Origin: a virus
Taxonomy: Duplodnaviria > Heunggongvirae > Uroviricota > Caudoviricetes
IMG/VR virus record: IMGVR_UViG_2531839665_000025
Coordinates: 1 to 14,206 of that record
DNA length: 14,206 nucleotides
Direction: 5' to 3' (one strand)
The notes beneath the pieces are model-generated. The model made no database searches and was not told where the DNA came from. It saw only the letters and a program-made list of their open reading frames with translations. The position numbers and the translations under genes were made by a program. Positions 1 to 10,574 of this stretch are shown here, piece after piece; positions within the stretch are counted from its first letter, which is position 1; every line of letters begins with the position of its first letter.

Positions 1-1284
1 TTACTTCTTCGCCTCTGCAACCACTTTACTACCCACGCCGCGGTTATTGTATTCCCACATGCGGTTGTAGTTAGTGTCATTCAGATTGCGCTGTATTTCG
101 TCGTTATCATCTACGCTGCCGGTATTACCCGCAAACGGACGATTAGAGATCACCGCATCGGCCCACGGTTTAGCCGTGTTAAAACCTTCGTTGATGGCGC
201 TATCACGGATCACCACCTGACCGTTGGTATTGGCATCAACATCCAGCGAGCGGCCCAGTTGCGCCACACCATCACCGAAAGCATTGAAACGGCTGTTTAC
301 GGCGAGGAAACCGTAGTAAATGTTGGACAGCGTAGCCGGTGCAAACACATACGCTTCTTGCTGAGTACGTGAGTTCACCACGCGGAATTCGGTGTTATCG
401 AACACCACTGCGCCGCGACCAGAAACGATATCCACATCCCCTTCAATGTAGCTGTTGGTCACCAGCGTACGCGGCTGACGGTTGGTTTCCAGACGGTTCT
501 GCACACCGCTGTTGGTGACAAAGAAGGTGTTCTGACGACCGAGAATGTTAACGTTGTTAATCTGTACCTGGTCACCATCAGTACGCAGTGCCACCGCCGG
601 ATGGTTACCTGCATCTACGCTATCGCCCAGCGTGTTTTCGATGGTCAGATTTTGCAGTTGCAGGCCATTGTTTTGTGACCAGAAGACCGCAGAGCAGAGA
701 ACACCGATACTGTCGCTGCGTTTGCTCTGGCAGCTATCGTACATATACCACGCTGGTTTACCTGGCATATATTTGCCGCGCGGGTTGACGTCGTGACGCC
801 AGTCGGCAGGGCTCATGCCCCCATCAAGGGAAAGCCCAATCTTCACATCAATCGGTTTTTCACCTGTACCGTACAGAGTAATTCCACCCGGAGCAGCAGG
901 GACATACACCGTTCCCTGATACTCACCAGGCATCACGGCAATATACTGGCGCTTGTTAGTGCGCTTGATAATTGCCGCATCTACCGCCGCCTGAATCGTG
1001 GTATGCGTTACACCTTGAGTACCCGCCGGGCCGACAACAAAGTCAGGTTGCGCAGGCAGGGTAATCGGGGAAGGATTCCACGCTGCAGCACCTGGTGTCA
1101 GGGATGCAAAATAGTGTTGAGCATCGAAATTCTGCGCTTCTTTTGCCGACAGAATCGGGCGAGAAGAGGTACCAGGCGCGGTTTGATCAGAAGGACGTTG
1201 ATCGGGTGGTGTTGAGCTACAGGCGGTCAGCGTCACGCCAAAAGCCAATGCCAGCGCCAGACGGGAAACTGAAAATGTGTTCAC
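1..1284 (-). CDS. ybhC: Host gene ybhC: putative pectinesterase-family outer-membrane lipoprotein, complete, GTG start
   Basis: 427-aa ORF; N-terminus MNTFSVSRLALALAFGVTLTAC has a lipoprotein signal with lipobox-like LTAC; matches remembered E. coli YbhC, the gene flanking attB-lambda on the gal side. Start codon is GTG (plus-strand cac at 1282-1284). Confidence 0.85.
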   Translation of the reverse strand: MNTFSVSRLALALAFGVTLTACSSTPPDQRPSDQTAPGTSSRPILSAKEAQNFDAQHYFASLTPGAAAWNPSPITLPAQPDFVVGPAGTQGVTHTTIQAAVDAAIIKRTNKRQYIAVMPGEYQGTVYVPAAPGGITLYGTGEKPIDVKIGLSLDGGMSPADWRHDVNPRGKYMPGKPAWYMYDSCQSKRSDSIGVLCSAVFWSQNNGLQLQNLTIENTLGDSVDAGNHPAVALRTDGDQVQINNVNILGRQNTFFVTNSGVQNRLETNRQPRTLVTNSYIEGDVDIVSGRGAVVFDNTEFRVVNSRTQQEAYVFAPATLSNIYYGFLAVNSRFNAFGDGVAQLGRSLDVDANTNGQVVIRDSAINEGFNTAKPWADAVISNRPFAGNTGSVDDNDEIQRNLNDTNYNRMWEYNNRGVGSKVVAEAKK

Positions 1285-1418: not shown

Positions 1419-2489
1419 TTATTTGATTTCAATTTTGTCCCACTCCCTGCCTCTGTCATCACGATACTGTGATGCCATGGTGTCCGACTTATGTCCGAGA
1501 AGATGTTGAGCAAACTTATCGCTTATCTGCTTCTCATAGAGTCTTGCAGACAAACTGCGCAACTCGTGAAAGGTAGGCGGATCCCCTTCGAAGGAAAGAC
1601 CTGATGCTTTTCGTGCGCGCATAAAATACCTTGATACTGTGCCGGATGAAAGCGGTTCACGACGAGTAGATGCAATTATGGTTTCTCCGCCAAGAATCTC
1701 TTTGCATTTATCAAGTGTTTCCTTCATTGATATCCCGAGAGCATCAACATGCAATGTTGTAGGGATGGCAATTTTTACGCCTGTTTTGCTTTGTTCGACA
1801 TAAAGATATCCATCTACGATATCAGACCACTTCATTTCGCATAAATCACCAACTCGCTGCCCGGTAACAACAGCCAGTTCCATTGCAAGTCTGAGCCAAC
1901 ATGGTGATGATTCTGCTGCTTGATAAATTTTCAGGTATTCGTCAGCCGTAAGTCTTGATCTCCTTACCTCTGATTTTGCTGCGCGAGTGGCAGCGACCGG
2001 GTTTGTTGTTATATGGCCTTCAGCTATTGCCTCTCGGAATGCATCGCTCAGTGTTGATCTGATTAACTTGGCTGACGCCGCCTTGCCCTCGTCTATGTAT
2101 CCATTGAGCATTGCCGCAATTTCTTTTGTGGTGATGTCTTCAAGTGGAGCATCAGGCAGCCCCCTCCTTATTGCTTTAATTTTGCTCATGTAATTTATGA
2201 GTGTCTTCTGCTTGATTCCTCTGCTGGCGAGGATTTTTTCGTAGCGATCAAGCCATGAATGTAACGTAACAGAATTATCACTGTTGATTCTCGCTGTCAG
2301 AGGCTTGTGTTTGTGTCCTGAAAATAACTCAATATTGGCCTGTATTGCTTCAGTGATTGCTATCCTCCTGTCTCGGCCTAAACCAAACTCTTTACCCGTC
2401 CTTGGGTCCCTGTAGCAGTAATATCCATTGTTTCTTATATAAAGGTTAGGGGGTAAATCCCGGCGCTCATGACTTCGCCTTCTTCCCAT
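1419..2489 (-). CDS. int: Integrase (tyrosine recombinase), lambda Int
   Basis: 356-aa ORF MGRRRSHERRDLPPNLYIRNNGYYCYRDPRTGKEF...; near-identical to remembered lambda Int; sits next to attL; 5' end overlaps xis. Confidence 0.97.
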   Translation of the reverse strand: MGRRRSHERRDLPPNLYIRNNGYYCYRDPRTGKEFGLGRDRRIAITEAIQANIELFSGHKHKPLTARINSDNSVTLHSWLDRYEKILASRGIKQKTLINYMSKIKAIRRGLPDAPLEDITTKEIAAMLNGYIDEGKAASAKLIRSTLSDAFREAIAEGHITTNPVAATRAAKSEVRRSRLTADEYLKIYQAAESSPCWLRLAMELAVVTGQRVGDLCEMKWSDIVDGYLYVEQSKTGVKIAIPTTLHVDALGISMKETLDKCKEILGGETIIASTRREPLSSGTVSRYFMRARKASGLSFEGDPPTFHELRSLSARLYEKQISDKFAQHLLGHKSDTMASQYRDDRGREWDKIEIK

Positions 2490-2685
2490 TTCTGATCCTC
2501 TTCAAAAGGCTACCTGTTACTGGTCGATTTAAGTCAACCTTTACCGCTGATTCGTGGAACAGATACTCTCTTCCATCCTTAACCGGAGGAGGGAATATCC
2601 TGCATTCGCGCACCCATCGACGAACTGTTTCAAGGCTTCTTGGGCGTCGCTGGCGAGCGTTCCACTCCTGAAGTGTCAAGTACAT
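2467..2685 (-). CDS. xis: Excisionase, lambda Xis (72 aa); internal ATG of the 102-aa track ORF
   Basis: MYLTLQEWNARQRRPRSLETVRRWVRECRIFPPPVKDGREYLFHESAVKVDLNRPVTGSLLKRIRNGKKAKS matches lambda Xis; ATG at 2683-2685; overlaps int start as in lambda. Confidence 0.93.
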   Translation of the reverse strand: MYLTLQEWNARQRRPRSLETVRRWVRECRIFPPPVKDGREYLFHESAVKVDLNRPVTGSLLKRIRNGKKAKS

Positions 2686-2697
2686 CGCAAAGTCTCC

Positions 2698-2711
2698 GCA
2701 ATTACACGCAA
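2698..2711 (-). promoter_or_regulatory. cII-box-like TTGC-N6-TTGC inside xis (position of lambda pI -35 region)
   Basis: Minus strand reads TTGCGTGTAATTGC; same motif and location as remembered lambda pI. Confidence 0.5.
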
Positions 2712-2712
2712 G

Positions 2713-2733
2713 AAAAAGCCGCATTGATGCGGC
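2713..2733 (-). terminator. Putative intrinsic terminator (minus strand): stem GCCGCA-TCAA-TGCGGC followed by T5
   Basis: Perfect 6-bp GC-rich inverted repeat 2718-2733 with A-run 2713-2717 on plus (U-run on minus transcript); lies downstream of the 114-aa gene. Confidence 0.5.
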
Positions 2734-2802
2734 GATGGTAGGTCTGGATATCATTGAGCAATGAACAGGCCTCACCGAGTGTGAGGCGGTGTTATTTCAT
2801 GG

Positions 2803-3147
2803 TTAGTCCTTGCGTAGCTCGCTGATTCTTCTGTAAGTCTCTGGTGCTTTGTTTCCGTGTATCTTCATTTCAGACTTCAACAGAGCAACGAGGGAATCCC
2901 ATTCGTTGAGGATTCCTTTGAATGCCGGAACGCGCTTTGCAACCTTGTTGAATGAATCTCTGATTTCTGGAATCTGCTCAACAAGTGCAACGCATCGTCT
3001 GAAATCGGCTGCGTCATGGGGAGCGCCGAAGTGATGACCATAGATATTCTTTTTCAGTCCACATGCGATTGAGGCAAGAGTTGCGCTACTGATGCCAACA
3101 TCGCCAGTCGATTGCCATTTCAAAACCTTCATAGCCAAATCTGACAT
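2803..3147 (-). CDS. Hypothetical 114-aa protein; cargo (moron) gene between xis and a lambda-like terminator
   Basis: ORF MSDLAMKVLKWQSTGDVGISSATLASIACGLKKNIYGHHFGAPHDAADFRRC...; ATG at 3145-3147 with SD GGAGA about 7 nt upstream; no lambda counterpart recalled; no family recognised. Confidence 0.6.
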   Translation of the reverse strand: MSDLAMKVLKWQSTGDVGISSATLASIACGLKKNIYGHHFGAPHDAADFRRCVALVEQIPEIRDSFNKVAKRVPAFKGILNEWDSLVALLKSEMKIHGNKAPETYRRISELRKD

Positions 3148-3161
3148 TTCTTGTCTCCAAT

Positions 3162-3183
3162 AAAAAAAACCGCCATCAGGCGG
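3162..3183 (-). terminator. Intrinsic terminator (minus strand): GCCGCC-TGAT-GGCGG hairpin plus T8
   Basis: Plus strand aaaaaaaaccgccatcaggcgg; on minus strand a GC stem followed by 8 U. The same element is recalled in lambda between ea8.5 and xis. Confidence 0.7.
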
Positions 3184-3249
3184 CTTGGTGTTCTTTCAGT
3201 TCTTCAATTCGAATATTGGTTACATTGTTTTCATATATGAATAAATAAA

Positions 3250-3429
3250 TTAGCTTTTTTCGTTGCCTTCGCGTTCTTTATTAATTTTGACAAAATCGTT
3301 TTTACCACGCTCTCCAAATGCGTCTTTAGAGTCGTTGTATCCGCAATCGCAGCACACATAATCATCAGACCATCCACGCATTGTTTTTTCTTTTGCAATA
3401 TTTCCAGAACCGCATTTTGGACAAGACAT
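3250..3429 (-). CDS. Small zinc-ribbon protein (59 aa) with CPKC...CCDC motif
   Basis: MSCPKCGSGNIAKEKTMRGWSDDYVCCDCGYNDSKDAFGERGKNDFVKINKEREGNEKS; internal ATG at 3427-3429 preceded by SD GGAGGT; the track ORF 3250..3462 begins at a TTG with no SD. Confidence 0.55.
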   Translation of the reverse strand: MSCPKCGSGNIAKEKTMRGWSDDYVCCDCGYNDSKDAFGERGKNDFVKINKEREGNEKS

Positions 3430-3525
3430 ATCACTACCTCCAAAGCATGAGAGAGATGACAACGTAACATTGATTGGAGATTAACAATAGATTGCTGATG
3501 TAAAAGATATGTATAAGCTTAGCTA

Positions 3526-4314
3526 TCAAAGAGGAGGTTCTGGTAGTTGCATCCAGTCGGTTACATTGCGACTCTGTGTTTCGAAAAATTCATCACCATT
3601 GCGGACAATATCGAAAAACTCTCCGTCTCGATATTGCGCATAAAGAACGAATGCGCCATCACATAAAATAATTACGTGCTGACCATCATCTGGCATTAGC
3701 TCACTACAGCTTATCCAACCATCCGGAGTTACCGGAAGCGAGAACGGCAGCACATCTCTGTGAACAAGTTTTTGCTGTGACAGGTTATCCAGAACTTTCT
3801 GTACTGCTGCATCACCGAATACACCAAGCGCATCTGCCATAACTCCTACAACCTGATAAGCCTCAGCGCATACCGTGGATAAACCATCCGGAATTACCGG
3901 AGAGTTGCCGGGTTCTTTAATGTGCAAGCGAGGCTCACCATCTTTTGGTTCAGGCCACTGGCGCTCCATGTTGATCTTCAATTTATCTTCCATAGCAGCG
4001 GTAATTTCAGCATCGCTGATGCCAGCACGGCGCTGTGCATCCCACAACAGGAAATGCATATCAGCCCACTCGCTGAGATCGTCTGGTTCGGCTGCGGCTT
4101 CCAGAGCCTCTTTTGAGAGGTGTTTCAGTGGACCAATGGGGCCAACGCAGCCAAATGTGGAGTCAGACCATTTGGCATGCTCGTGGCGAATCAGTTCGCG
4201 TTCCAGTGATGCCAGTGCAATTCGTGCCAGTTCCATTTGTTCGCCACGAGTAAGCCCGTTTTCAAGCGGATTTTTAATGAACAATTCAATACGTTCTTTG
4301 GTAATAGTGGTCAT
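3526..4314 (-). CDS. Two-domain phage protein: N-terminal MazG-like nucleotide pyrophosphohydrolase-like domain (DUF550-like) and C-terminal DUF551-like domain
   Basis: 262 aa; N-terminal region carries paired acidic helices (EALEAAAE ... EWAD) reminiscent of MazG-type NTP-PPases; C-terminus DGWISCSELMPDD...TDWMQLPEPPL resembles the remembered DUF551 signature; SD AAGGA before ATG at 4312-4314. Confidence 0.5.
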   Translation of the reverse strand: MTTITKERIELFIKNPLENGLTRGEQMELARIALASLERELIRHEHAKWSDSTFGCVGPIGPLKHLSKEALEAAAEPDDLSEWADMHFLLWDAQRRAGISDAEITAAMEDKLKINMERQWPEPKDGEPRLHIKEPGNSPVIPDGLSTVCAEAYQVVGVMADALGVFGDAAVQKVLDNLSQQKLVHRDVLPFSLPVTPDGWISCSELMPDDGQHVIILCDGAFVLYAQYRDGEFFDIVRNGDEFFETQSRNVTDWMQLPEPPL

Positions 4315-4324
4315 TTGTTAGTCC

Positions 4325-5080
4325 TTAAAGTGCTAGTTGCAATTGCATTTCAAAGCGGTCGCGTTGTTCACAATACGCAAGAGAACCAGGGCTATTGTGT
4401 GCCTCAATCCGTTCTACCATTAATGCTGCGCGTGTCTCTTTACTTGCAGGTGCATAAGCCCCAGACCAGGCTTTATCAATACCGATGTTTCGAGCGACGT
4501 TCGTACTATCTGCGCTGGCTAAGGGTAATTTTGTGAATATCAGCGGATTTAACATGCGCAATCCATGTAGTTTCGTAACCGGCTGACCATGCCCATCAAC
4601 AATGTGACGAATCAGGTCTTTCATTCTGGCTACCGCAAGAGTTGGGCGCTTTACGTCATAGTCGCCACAACTACCGATAGCCACTCGCGGAAACTCATTG
4701 CACAAATGAATAAATCGCTCGTCACTTTCATTCATGTGCCACACTGGAACGCCAGCTAGTTTTCCGTGAGGCCACTCATTCAGAAGCGCATCATTTTCCT
4801 CCTCTCCGCCATCAATAACATCCGGGATAATGGCAAAATCGAATCCTGGGTGATTCTTCCAGCGAGCAACAAACTCGTAGTAATCGCTCCAGTCGATTTT
4901 GTTTTTGCCAGCTGCTTTCCAGGCGGTGAATGCACCGTTGTCCAGCGCGAACGACTGACAGTATTCAGCCGCGAGATTGATCTGGCCTGAATGCGCAAAA
5001 CTGATAAACGCATGTCGCCCTTTCCATGCTCTCATTGCGCACGTATCAGGAGTAATAGGCCCACCGTGGTAGTGAATCAT
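4325..5080 (-). CDS. TGT-fold (tRNA-guanine transglycosylase / DpdA-like) protein, 251 aa, lacking the C-terminal zinc subdomain
   Basis: Motif order parallels bacterial Tgt: HGGPITP (cf. VVETPCFMPVGT), FALDNGAFTAW (cf. LTDSGGFQVF), FDFAIIPDVI (cf. DIVMIFDEC), RVAIGSCGD (cf. YAVGGLAVGE), ADSTNVARNIG (cf. FDCVMPTRNARNG). Start taken at ATG 5078-5080 with SD AAGGAGA; the track's longer start at 5122 has no SD. Confidence 0.5.
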   Translation of the reverse strand: MIHYHGGPITPDTCAMRAWKGRHAFISFAHSGQINLAAEYCQSFALDNGAFTAWKAAGKNKIDWSDYYEFVARWKNHPGFDFAIIPDVIDGGEEENDALLNEWPHGKLAGVPVWHMNESDERFIHLCNEFPRVAIGSCGDYDVKRPTLAVARMKDLIRHIVDGHGQPVTKLHGLRMLNPLIFTKLPLASADSTNVARNIGIDKAWSGAYAPASKETRAALMVERIEAHNSPGSLAYCEQRDRFEMQLQLAL

Positions 5081-5081
5081 C

Positions 5082-5489
5082 TCACTCTCCTTTGATGCGA
5101 ATGCCAGTAGCGCGGATTGCATCGATGACTTCAGAAACTTTGTATGCCATTACCGTTTGGTAATCATCGTGAAAATCTGTTCGATGAAGCATGCTGCTAC
5201 GTTCCGGGAGCAGTATTTCCCGCGCTTCCAGTTCTGCAATGCGCTTTTTTGCTGCTTCCAGTTCATCCAGTAATTCCAGCACGGTAGCCGGATTAGCCTT
5301 GGCAACAAAATCCCGGACTGGCTTACAATCAATCTCCGCAATGGGTTGATACGATGTGTAGCCATGCTGTCTTGTATAACTACCGTGACGAATAACGAAA
5401 AAATCACCATTTATTTTTTTAGCCTGCCACTTATCTTCACCGGCTTTCTCTGCCGCTTCACGCAGTGCCTGAGAGTTAATTTCGCTCAC
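5082..5489 (-). CDS. ea22: Ea22-like protein (135 aa), GTG start overlapping upstream stop
   Basis: N-terminus MSEINSQALREAAE and C-terminus GIRIKGE match remembered lambda Ea22 ends; central part differs. Confidence 0.7.
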   Translation of the reverse strand: MSEINSQALREAAEKAGEDKWQAKKINGDFFVIRHGSYTRQHGYTSYQPIAEIDCKPVRDFVAKANPATVLELLDELEAAKKRIAELEAREILLPERSSMLHRTDFHDDYQTVMAYKVSEVIDAIRATGIRIKGE

Positions 5490-5756: not shown

Positions 5757-5783
5757 AATAATAAAAAAGGAGCCTGTAGCTCC
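5757..5783 (-). terminator. Putative intrinsic terminator (minus strand): GGAGC-TACAG-GCTCC plus U-rich tail
   Basis: Plus strand aataataaaaaaggagcctgtagctcc; hairpin then T6ATTATT on the minus transcript. Confidence 0.5.
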
Positions 5784-5805
5784 CTGATGATTTTGCTTTT
5801 CATGT

Positions 5806-8422: not shown

Positions 8423-8555
8423 TTTTTGGGACTCCTGGCTGATTAAGTATGTCGATAAGGCGTTTCCATCCGTCACGTAATTTACGGGTGATTCGTTCAA
8501 GTAAAGATTCGGAAGGGCAGCCAGCAACAGGCCACCCTGCAATGGCATATTGCAT
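8391..8555 (-). CDS. cIII: CIII, FtsH/HflB inhibitor that stabilises CII, 54 aa
   Basis: Translated by hand from the minus strand: [54 protein letters not shown]; not in the ORF track as a separate ORF (different frame from kil). Confidence 0.88.
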   Translation of the reverse strand: MQYAIAGWPVAGCPSESLLERITRKLRDGWKRLIDILNQPGVPKNGSNNYGYPD

Positions 8556-8627
8556 GGTGTGCTCCTTATTTATACATAACGAAAAACGCCTCGAGTGAAG
8601 CGTAATTGGTATGCGGTAACGCCGCGC

Positions 8628-9014: not shown

Positions 9015-9042
9015 ATAAAAAATCGCCCTCATCTTGGAGGGC
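9015..9042 (-). terminator. Putative intrinsic terminator (minus strand): GCCCTC-CAAGAT-GAGGGC plus T6
   Basis: Inverted repeat 9025-9030 / 9037-9042 with A-run 9017-9022 on plus; lies just upstream of the ea10 SD; a near-identical element is recalled in lambda. Confidence 0.5.
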
Positions 9043-9159
9043 AAAGAAGATTTCCAATAATCAGAACAAGTCGGCTCCTGTTTAGTTACGAGCGACATTG
9101 CTCCGTGTATTCACTCGTTGGAATGAATACACAGCGCTGTGTTTATTCTGTTGTTTGCG

Positions 9160-9184: not shown

Positions 9185-10066
9185 TTATGACCACTTTTTG
9201 TTTGGGTTTCGTTGGTGAGCGTGGTTTACAGGATTATTTGATATACCCCATAACTCTGACTCGCTTATCTCTACACGAGAGAAAGACCTGCTTTCTTTCA
9301 GTTCTTTTATAAACCTAGAACCTAAGATGACATCTATTGTACCAGAAAGTTCTTGTAAAAGATCTATGTTTTTTCTGAGGAAGAAAATATCTTCTTTATA
9401 TTTAATTTTTACATAGAATTTATTCTGTATTTTTAATATATCAAAGCATGGCAGATATCTATATCCCTCATATTTTCGCCACTGCTTAACAATTATAACA
9501 TCTTTTTCATTTACTGCATTAATCAGCCCAAGACCAAGTACAGGTATGAATATTCTATTGTCTGCCGAAAGCGTACAATTATCACCACCAGGCAAATATG
9601 TATAAATCATGTCGGAATTTTTATACGCATCAACGAATGCACGTAAGAAGCGTACATATTTTTGCCATCCGTTTATACCGAATTTACCATATAAGTATTC
9701 TTTATTTGTTAGAAGAAAACTATTTGTATCAGGATCCTTATCTACAGACCTGTCGATAAGATCTCCAACTACGTTTACAAAGTCAAAGACAGAGTTTAAT
9801 AAGAACAATTGTCTTTCAGTAGGGCGAATTTCAATTATGTAGCCAGGATGAAGACGATATTGCATCTGCTTACGAAGTATACCGAACGCTTGGGTCCGAG
9901 CATCTGAAAGCAACTTCTTGTCGCCATCGCCGTGAGCATTGTTTCTAATAAAACTGATATAATTTGCTAATTTTTCAGCCTCTTTTTTGTGTTTTTTTCG
10001 CTCTGATGCTGAGTCTATTGGTTTTGGTATGGACTTGTAATCAATCTTCTTCATTACGTACCTCAT
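9185..10066 (-). CDS. Hypothetical 293-aa cytoplasmic protein encoded in an AT-rich cargo block between N and ea10
   Basis: Long ORF MRYVMKKIDYKSIPKPIDSASERKKHKKEAEKLANYISFIRNNAHGDGDKK...; no hydrophobic segments; visibly lower GC than the flanks; start ATG 10064-10066 overlaps the N stop (ATGA), alternative ATG 10052-10054 has SD GAGGT; no family recognised. Confidence 0.65.
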   Translation of the reverse strand: MRYVMKKIDYKSIPKPIDSASERKKHKKEAEKLANYISFIRNNAHGDGDKKLLSDARTQAFGILRKQMQYRLHPGYIIEIRPTERQLFLLNSVFDFVNVVGDLIDRSVDKDPDTNSFLLTNKEYLYGKFGINGWQKYVRFLRAFVDAYKNSDMIYTYLPGGDNCTLSADNRIFIPVLGLGLINAVNEKDVIIVKQWRKYEGYRYLPCFDILKIQNKFYVKIKYKEDIFFLRKNIDLLQELSGTIDVILGSRFIKELKESRSFSRVEISESELWGISNNPVNHAHQRNPNKKWS

Positions 10067-10386
10067 GCCAATGGAATGGATTCCCCTTTAACCTTTTGTC
10101 TTCCTTGACAAGTTATACCGAACTCACCTGGCTTGCTATACCAAACTCGATGATTCTTGCGCTCAATACGTTGCAGGTTGCTTTCAATCTGTTCGTGGTA
10201 TTCAGCCAGCACCGTAAGGTCTATCGGATTCAGTGCGCTTTCTACTCGTGATTTCGGTTTGCGATTCAGCGAGAGAATAGGGCGGTTAACTGGTTTAGCG
10301 CTTACCCCAACCAACAGGGGATTTGCTGCTTTCCATTGAGCCTGTTTCTCTGCGCGACGTTCGCGGCGGCGTGTTTGTGCATCCAT
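10063..10386 (-). CDS. N: Antiterminator N (107 aa)
   Basis: MDAQTRRRERRAEKQAQWKAANPLLVGVSAKPVNRPILSLNRKPKSRVESALNPIDLTVLAEYHEQIESNLQRIERKNHRVWYSKPGEFGITCQGRQKVKGESIPLA, with an arginine-rich N-terminal RNA-binding motif; internal ATG 10384-10386 with SD AGGAGA; the 151-aa track ORF is an upstream extension. Confidence 0.9.
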   Translation of the reverse strand: MDAQTRRRERRAEKQAQWKAANPLLVGVSAKPVNRPILSLNRKPKSRVESALNPIDLTVLAEYHEQIESNLQRIERKNHRVWYSKPGEFGITCQGRQKVKGESIPLA

Positions 10387-10543
10387 CTGGATTCTCCTGT
10401 CAGTTAGCTTTGGTTGTGTGTGGTAGTCGTAGTCCTGAACGAAAACACCCCGCAATGGCACATTGGCAGCTAATCCGGATTCGCACTTCCGGCCAATGCT
10501 TCGTTTCGTATCACACACACCAAAGCCTTCTGCTTTGAATGCT

Positions 10544-10574
10544 GCCCTTCTTCAGGGCTTAATTTTTAAGAGCC
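10544..10574 (-). promoter_or_regulatory. nutL: nutL: boxB GCCCTGAAGAAGGGC (10544-10558) and boxA-like GGCTCTTA (10567-10574)
   Basis: boxB is an exact lambda nutL boxB on the minus strand; boxA differs at its first base from the remembered lambda CGCTCTTA. Confidence 0.8.

Follow-up and report, generated by a model that had tools for sequence, protein, structure and literature searches.

The segment between xis and the end of orf55 in this lambdoid prophage is not new: phages 434 and HK022 carry the same unit, known there as the ORF114 cassette. ORF114 is quite probably an accessory unit of one gene with no promoter of its own, located at the far end of the leftward (pL) early operon, and, judging from the arrangement of signals around it, most likely a delayed-early gene depending on N antitermination. 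The original prediction had seen here a self-contained moron, expressed autonomously from the prophage as a fitness or defense factor; the discrete single-gene piece of extra DNA, its Shine-Dalgarno sequence and the terminator that follows it hold, but autonomous expression and a role in defense are not supported.

Layout of the prophage end and the segment absent from lambda

At the lambda attachment site, the window, the whole stretch of 14,206 nucleotides that was analyzed, includes the left end of a lambdoid prophage, best explained as an integrated lambdoid phage with 434-like immunity. After the host gene ybhC, the minus strand carries int, xis, ORF114 and then further leftward early genes (Table 1); all genes from N to int lie on this strand, with exo, bet, gam, kil, the N-like gene and the cIII thermoregulator RNA among them. 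The true start of the N-like gene is probably internal to the longest open reading frame. Homology to lambda begins at the region of the pL transcript start (+1). Upstream of this region there are ACAA-N6-TTGT motifs that have the look of a 434-type operator, as judged by eye, and a 158-aa gene (PHROG 2651, no assigned function) sits between the cI-like repressor gene and pL.

Table 1. Features located in the 14,206-nucleotide window
Feature	Position	Strand	Basis or remark
Host ybhC	1-1284		adjoins the prophage end
int, lambda type, 356 aa	1419-2489	-	ORF list, homology to 434 record
xis, lambda type, 72 aa	2467-2685	-	ORF list, homology to 434 record, lambda alignment
Putative pI promoter and CII-binding site TTGC-N6-TTGC (2698-2711)	2680-2711	-	placed by homology: OL657226 annotation carried over via alignment
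Downstream terminator: hairpin 2718-2733 and T5 2713-2717	2713-2733	-	hairpin -10.5 kcal/mol
7-bp stem-loop, 16 nt 3' of ORF114 stop, no T-run	2769-2787	-	folding and comparison
ORF114, 114 aa and stop, ATG at 3147	2803-3147	-	PHROG 1229; homolog of 434 ORF114 / HK022 gp32
Shine-Dalgarno GGAGA, 7 nt 5' of ORF114 ATG	3154-3158	-	sequence
T8 (U8) tract of upstream terminator, ends 3 nt before Shine-Dalgarno	3162-3169	-	sequence
Upstream terminator hairpin AAGCCGCC-TGAT-GGCGGTTT	3167-3186	-	-12 to -13 kcal/mol
orf55 remnant: last 14 codons (TNIRIEELKEHQAA) and stop, without start codon	3175-3223	-	alignments
Zn-ribbon gene (CxxC...CxxC)	3250-3462	-	'Eag protein' in RefSeq E. coli annotations
262-aa protein, PF04447 dATP/dGTP pyrophosphohydrolase domain and C-terminal DUF551	3526-4314	-	
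265-aa DpdA-like protein	4325-5122	-	PHROG 887 'queuine tRNA-ribosyltransferase', E 5e-104
Terminator-like sites, N to ORF114	9023-9044, 8586-8603, 5767-5785	-	sequence consensus only
Rfam Lambda_thermo (cIII thermoregulator RNA)	8510-8568	-	88.5 bits
N-like antiterminator gene (longest ORF)	10063-10518	-	
nutL, lambda type	10544-10573	-	boxB 10544-10558 identical to lambda
cI-like repressor, 210 aa	11139-11771		

The ORF, the Shine-Dalgarno sequence, both hairpins and their U-tracts were all found on the minus strand where they had been predicted, and the predicted insert of about 450 bp relative to lambda at the terminator A-run proved, in an alignment with NC_001416, to be 451 bp long: window positions 2713-3163 are absent from lambda, with an ambiguity of a few nucleotides within the A-runs. 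The lambda sequence ...CGCAAG, the ending of ...ATTACACGCAAG, joins AAAAAACCGCCATCAGGCGGC directly and is therefore without this segment, whose position coincides exactly with the A-run of the hairpin that precedes xis. The 114-aa ORF is one real gene with its own Shine-Dalgarno sequence, followed by a hairpin and U-tract, and does not lie within a larger gene; the 434 record OL657226 annotates a ribosome-binding site at the homologous position. The 'lambda-like terminator' on the upstream side of the segment doubles as the 3' end of lambda orf55, whose TGA stop falls within the loop; shortly beyond it, at 3223/3224, the homology shared with lambda, 434 and HK022 breaks off at a recombination junction with unrelated sequence.

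The Zn-ribbon gene, which stands where most of orf55 would be, is AT-rich (GC 0.35-0.40 for the region), and its protein has weak Lar-like and HVO_2753-like matches. The PF04447-DUF551 gene adjoins the DpdA-like gene, which was without a match in Pfam and NCBIfam scans and, from its PHROG assignment, may be a 7-deazaguanine DNA-modification gene within the early-left operon.

Flanking terminators and the expression of ORF114

In the interval 2300-3700, six terminator-like sites were found against 1.2 expected from shuffled sequences. The hairpin on the upstream side of the segment has the same sequence as the one that precedes xis in lambda. The downstream terminator is the 't'-I' of the 434 records (the terminator annotation of OL657226 cites PMID 6305007) and adjoins pI at its CII site and -35 element. 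The two flanking hairpins are alike (AAAAAGCCGCATTGATGCGGC and AAAAAACCGCCATCAGGCGGC), both consisting of an A-run with a CCGC/GCGG hairpin, each flanking terminator abuts either a Shine-Dalgarno sequence or the pI/CII site, and a third similar unit of terminator plus Shine-Dalgarno sequence is found before orf55 in 434 and directly before ORF114 in phage g341c. Given this likeness, the difference from lambda would most simply stem from recombination at these linker-like sequences, within the A-runs or beside them, that either inserted or deleted the segment; both arrangements, with and without ORF114, keep a terminator directly upstream of pI. A 12-nt direct repeat behind two of the hairpins, GGTGTT(A/C)TTTCA, was too short to interpret.

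The terminator behind ORF114 had been taken for the gene's own. The hairpin and T5 are indeed present, but in phages compared by int/xis module their presence follows the lambda-type xis/pI rather than ORF114: in g341c, the following gene begins right behind the ORF114 3' stem-loop and the T5 terminator is absent, WGPS6 (AlpA-type module) has a different hairpin at this position, and in mEp213 no hairpin was evident there. Phi24B is without ORF114, yet has a hairpin immediately upstream of xis, and lambdoid phages in general appear to have a terminator ahead of the excisionase gene. What is kept with ORF114, in all six phages compared and including those with differing flanks, is the 7-bp stem-loop; having no T-run, it is not a canonical terminator, and it may serve to stabilize the RNA 3' end or as a linker for recombination. 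A search of the ORF114 region matched no Rfam family. The hairpins of Phi24B (locus L080, 1580-1635) and WGPS6 (locus L005, 1579-1625) are GC hairpins with a T-rich tail directly upstream of xis or alpA, carried by unrelated integration modules.

Sequence elements expected of an N-antiterminated pL operon are present: ORF114 lies on the same strand and downstream of pL, an N-like gene and nutL are found, the latter with a boxA one base off that of lambda, just upstream of the conserved core, and predicted terminators intervene. By consensus only, minus-strand terminator-like sites end at 9044, 8603, 5785, 3186 and 2733, so that at least four predicted intrinsic terminators (9044, 8603, 5785, 3186) lie between pL and ORF114. 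With such an arrangement, ORF114 would be carried only on the N-antiterminated pL transcript. Transcription would start at pL and acquire N at the lambda-type nutL; the antiterminated transcript would pass a series of terminators, including the hairpin and U8 located 3 nt before the ORF114 Shine-Dalgarno sequence, from which ORF114 would be translated, and would run on past t'-I, the second hairpin with its U5, to reach xis and int. Where N is missing, as in a repressed prophage or at the very start of infection, the predicted terminators would keep ORF114, xis and int silent, which would make ORF114 a delayed-early gene of the lytic cycle and not a moron expressed in the lysogen. Both the N-dependence and the silence in the lysogen are inferred from the order of these signals.

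Morons were reportedly described by Juhala et al. 2000, with gene 15 of HK97 as an example. They are defined as extra DNA with its own promoter and terminator, usually of deviant GC content, expressed from the repressed prophage (PMC3594210). By this definition, an autonomous moron that brings a fitness or defense benefit to the lysogen is an unlikely description of ORF114. A scan limited to the sigma-70 -35/-10 consensus found no promoter-like site in 2300-3700, where 2.7 were expected, and none on the minus strand from 9417 to 1459. Only 14 nt separate the end of the T8 run from the ATG, and only 3 nt from the Shine-Dalgarno sequence, so any transcript that bears the Shine-Dalgarno sequence must pass the upstream terminator, and on the sequence the spacing excludes a promoter for want of room. 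The GC content of ORF114 (0.46-0.50) equals that of int/xis (0.44-0.50), PADLOC defense models gave no match (0 families at E <= 0.1), homologs in Vibrio, Gordonia and Arthrobacter phages lie inside packed early operons, and the terminator behind the gene seems to be part of the xis/pI module. Against these points stand the extra DNA at a conserved position relative to lambda, its boundaries exactly at a terminator, the hairpin and U-tract sites that bracket it, and the frequency of the gene in E. coli, where it is present in 963 of 5426 complete genomes. In addition, the junction next to lambda-type xis, carried by roughly 1800 E. coli genomes, has the contiguous lambda form in 38 of a spread sample of 41 full-coverage matches in E. 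coli, and contains the segment of about 450 bp in the other three; a majority of junctions without the cassette is the pattern expected of moron-like acquisition and was counted against the assignment of ORF114 to the pL operon. A gene bracketed by terminators is not automatically a moron; in this case the terminator placed against the ribosome-binding site excludes a promoter and points to N-gated early expression.

The ORF114 protein and its family

ORF114 is under purifying selection and is a real gene: its pN/pS is 0.04-0.20 in six phages, synonymous changes far outnumbering non-synonymous ones. That it might be a chance open frame between two terminators, with a non-coding feature as the conserved element, is exceedingly improbable; it would agree with the absence of functional annotation in Pfam, NCBIfam, PADLOC and the PDB, but it is refuted by the pattern of conservation, and a protein family recognizable at 30-40% identity in phages of several phyla and with seven invariant residues, a structure model of high confidence and the lack of any Rfam match all speak against it.

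The protein belongs to PHROG 1229 (function unknown; E 1.1e-51 over residues 1-114) and is 96.5% identical to 434 ORF114 of M60848, with full-length homology, the same strand and the same synteny (5' of xis, 3' of the orf55 end). The homology and structure searches that had been proposed for it revealed a large family, but no counterpart in Pfam, NCBIfam or the PDB. A profile search of 1.84 billion representative proteins yielded 2819 clusters (defined at 50% identity) at E <= 1e-3, of which 606 were at E <= 1e-10, and tblastn detected homologs of 30-45% identity in Vibrio, Klebsiella, Mannheimia, Gordonia and Arthrobacter phages. Residues S20, P43, D45, D48, R51, C52 and W83 are invariant among 58 diverse members; several of them stand where helices begin (S-S-x-T, D-P-x-D) and may serve as structural caps rather than as a catalytic site. 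The AlphaFold2 model is all-alpha with seven helices (mean pLDDT 93.4). PDB sequence and profile searches were without a match, a Pfam scan of the 58 diverse members gave only chance-level matches, and the BFVD matches are to uncharacterized viral proteins only. The family is without annotated function in any library searched.

Many database 'homologs' (P0015, P0030, P0037, P0048 and P0063 among them) are chimeras with part of ORF114 joined to PF04447, Ea22-like, Kil or other early proteins, and look like deletions inside the early-left operons of decaying E. coli prophages; the junction in P0015 is at a shared G-I-S motif. A link between ORF114 and PF04447 by way of P0015, P0051 and P0063 was rejected, as these are deletion chimeras that fuse a neighboring gene to ORF114. 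Fused family members have N- and C-terminal extensions of various kinds that match no Pfam or PHROG entry, with the exceptions of one match to a PHROG of unknown function and one CCA-adding-enzyme/HD fusion. The latter (P0168 of the representative library, 558 aa) combines a PolyA_pol head, an RNA-binding domain and an HD domain with a C-terminal ORF114-like domain, and is the sole fusion of the family to an annotated domain architecture; a link to RNA or nucleotides is a possible hint from it.

Many unrelated phages have homologs, which lie in their early, replication and accessory regions. In Gordonia phage PhorbesPhlower the homolog is part of a long co-directional early array, its ends overlapping the adjacent genes, and in Vibrio phage D80 it is found amid many small, closely spaced genes. 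No conserved partner gene was detected at 53 IMG/VR loci of distant homologs, where the neighbors are mixed early, replication and recombination genes. Only one of 95 neighbor genes of distant homologs is an integrase, which argues, together with the missing partner, against ORF114 being an accessory factor of site-specific recombination or of its regulation. Such a role, very unlikely on balance, would be in keeping with the location beside xis/int in many lambdoid and P22-like phages and with an N-terminal helix-loop-G-I-S-S-x-T-helix that may resemble a helix-turn-helix. However, ORF114 is the last or near-last early-left gene beside four types of int/xis module (lambda-type, AlpA-type, SfX-type and HK620-type), and its place at the end of the early-left operon accounts for the adjacency to xis/int; ORF114 is missing from lambda and from most E. 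coli prophages whose xis is of the lambda type.

That the family is found in early operons, and in phages with many different hosts, makes a lytic role likelier than that of a fitness factor for the lysogen. As a weak inference, ORF114 may bind some macromolecule while the phage grows lytically and so contribute, for instance, to host takeover or counter-defense. More speculatively, ORF114 could be the E. coli member of a large non-Pfam family with an undescribed early-infection function, such as neutralizing a host defense or modifying a host or nucleic-acid target, and gated by N through the terminator against its ribosome-binding site; this is a possibility, though a rather doubtful one. 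Whatever its function, ORF114 offers a stand-in for a widespread, conserved phage family with a confident, unmatched fold, tractable in 434 or HK022.

Comparison with known phages and accessory genes

A megablast search with positions 2600-3300 matched 208 phage records. The 434 record M60848, which we take to be the one belonging to Baker et al. 1991 (New Biol 3:297), gives the order int, xis, terminator 't'-I', 'ORF114', 'ORF55', terminator 't-L4'. ORF114 is AAA67902 in M60848 and CPT_434_33 in OL657226; the latter record, of the complete 434 genome published in 2022 (PMC9119081), shows the same gene with its ribosome-binding site and a terminator that abuts the pI promoter and CII site. In HK022 it is gene 32 / gp32 (AUM59808 / HK022p30), with the record note 'N15 early protein homolog'. 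No study of ORF114 was found in the literature searched, and the screens of phage accessory genes by Silas et al. contain neither the protein nor its motif. For 434 and HK022, public records have shown this gene, the terminators on either side and the departure from lambda for decades; little is added to them here, and the arrangement exemplifies lambdoid mosaicism in textbook fashion.

Both 434 and HK022 carry the same segment in the same place with about 95% DNA identity, and share with the window the position between xis and orf55, the Shine-Dalgarno sequence, the two hairpins and the 3' stem-loop. The window differs from them in 10-12 additional bases behind the 3' stem-loop and in the truncation of orf55, which is replaced by the Zn-ribbon, pyrophosphohydrolase-DUF551 and DpdA-like genes. 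Lambda has the identical hairpin and A/T-run at the orf55 end and a conserved pI/CII-site sequence beside xis, but in lambda this one hairpin abuts pI without ORF114, whereas the window, 434 and HK022 have the second, similar hairpin (t'-I) there.

The exo-xis region genes of lambda and Stx phages are expressed at the earliest lytic stages (PMC8614690). Like ORF114, the accessory genes of that region (orf55, ea8.5, ea22, orf61, orf63, orf60a, orf73) are small, non-essential and situated in the pL-driven stretch, but ORF114 is unrelated to them in sequence and predicted fold. It is absent from lambda and from Phi24B, and vb_24B_1c, which lies beside xis in Phi24B, was considered as a counterpart and proved unrelated. 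With morons, the ORF114 segment shares its nature as extra DNA at an exact intergenic site relative to a close relative, consisting of a single gene followed by a terminator; unlike them, it has neither its own promoter nor a deviation in GC content, its terminator seems to be common with the neighboring module, and it is co-oriented with the other genes of an N-antiterminated early operon.
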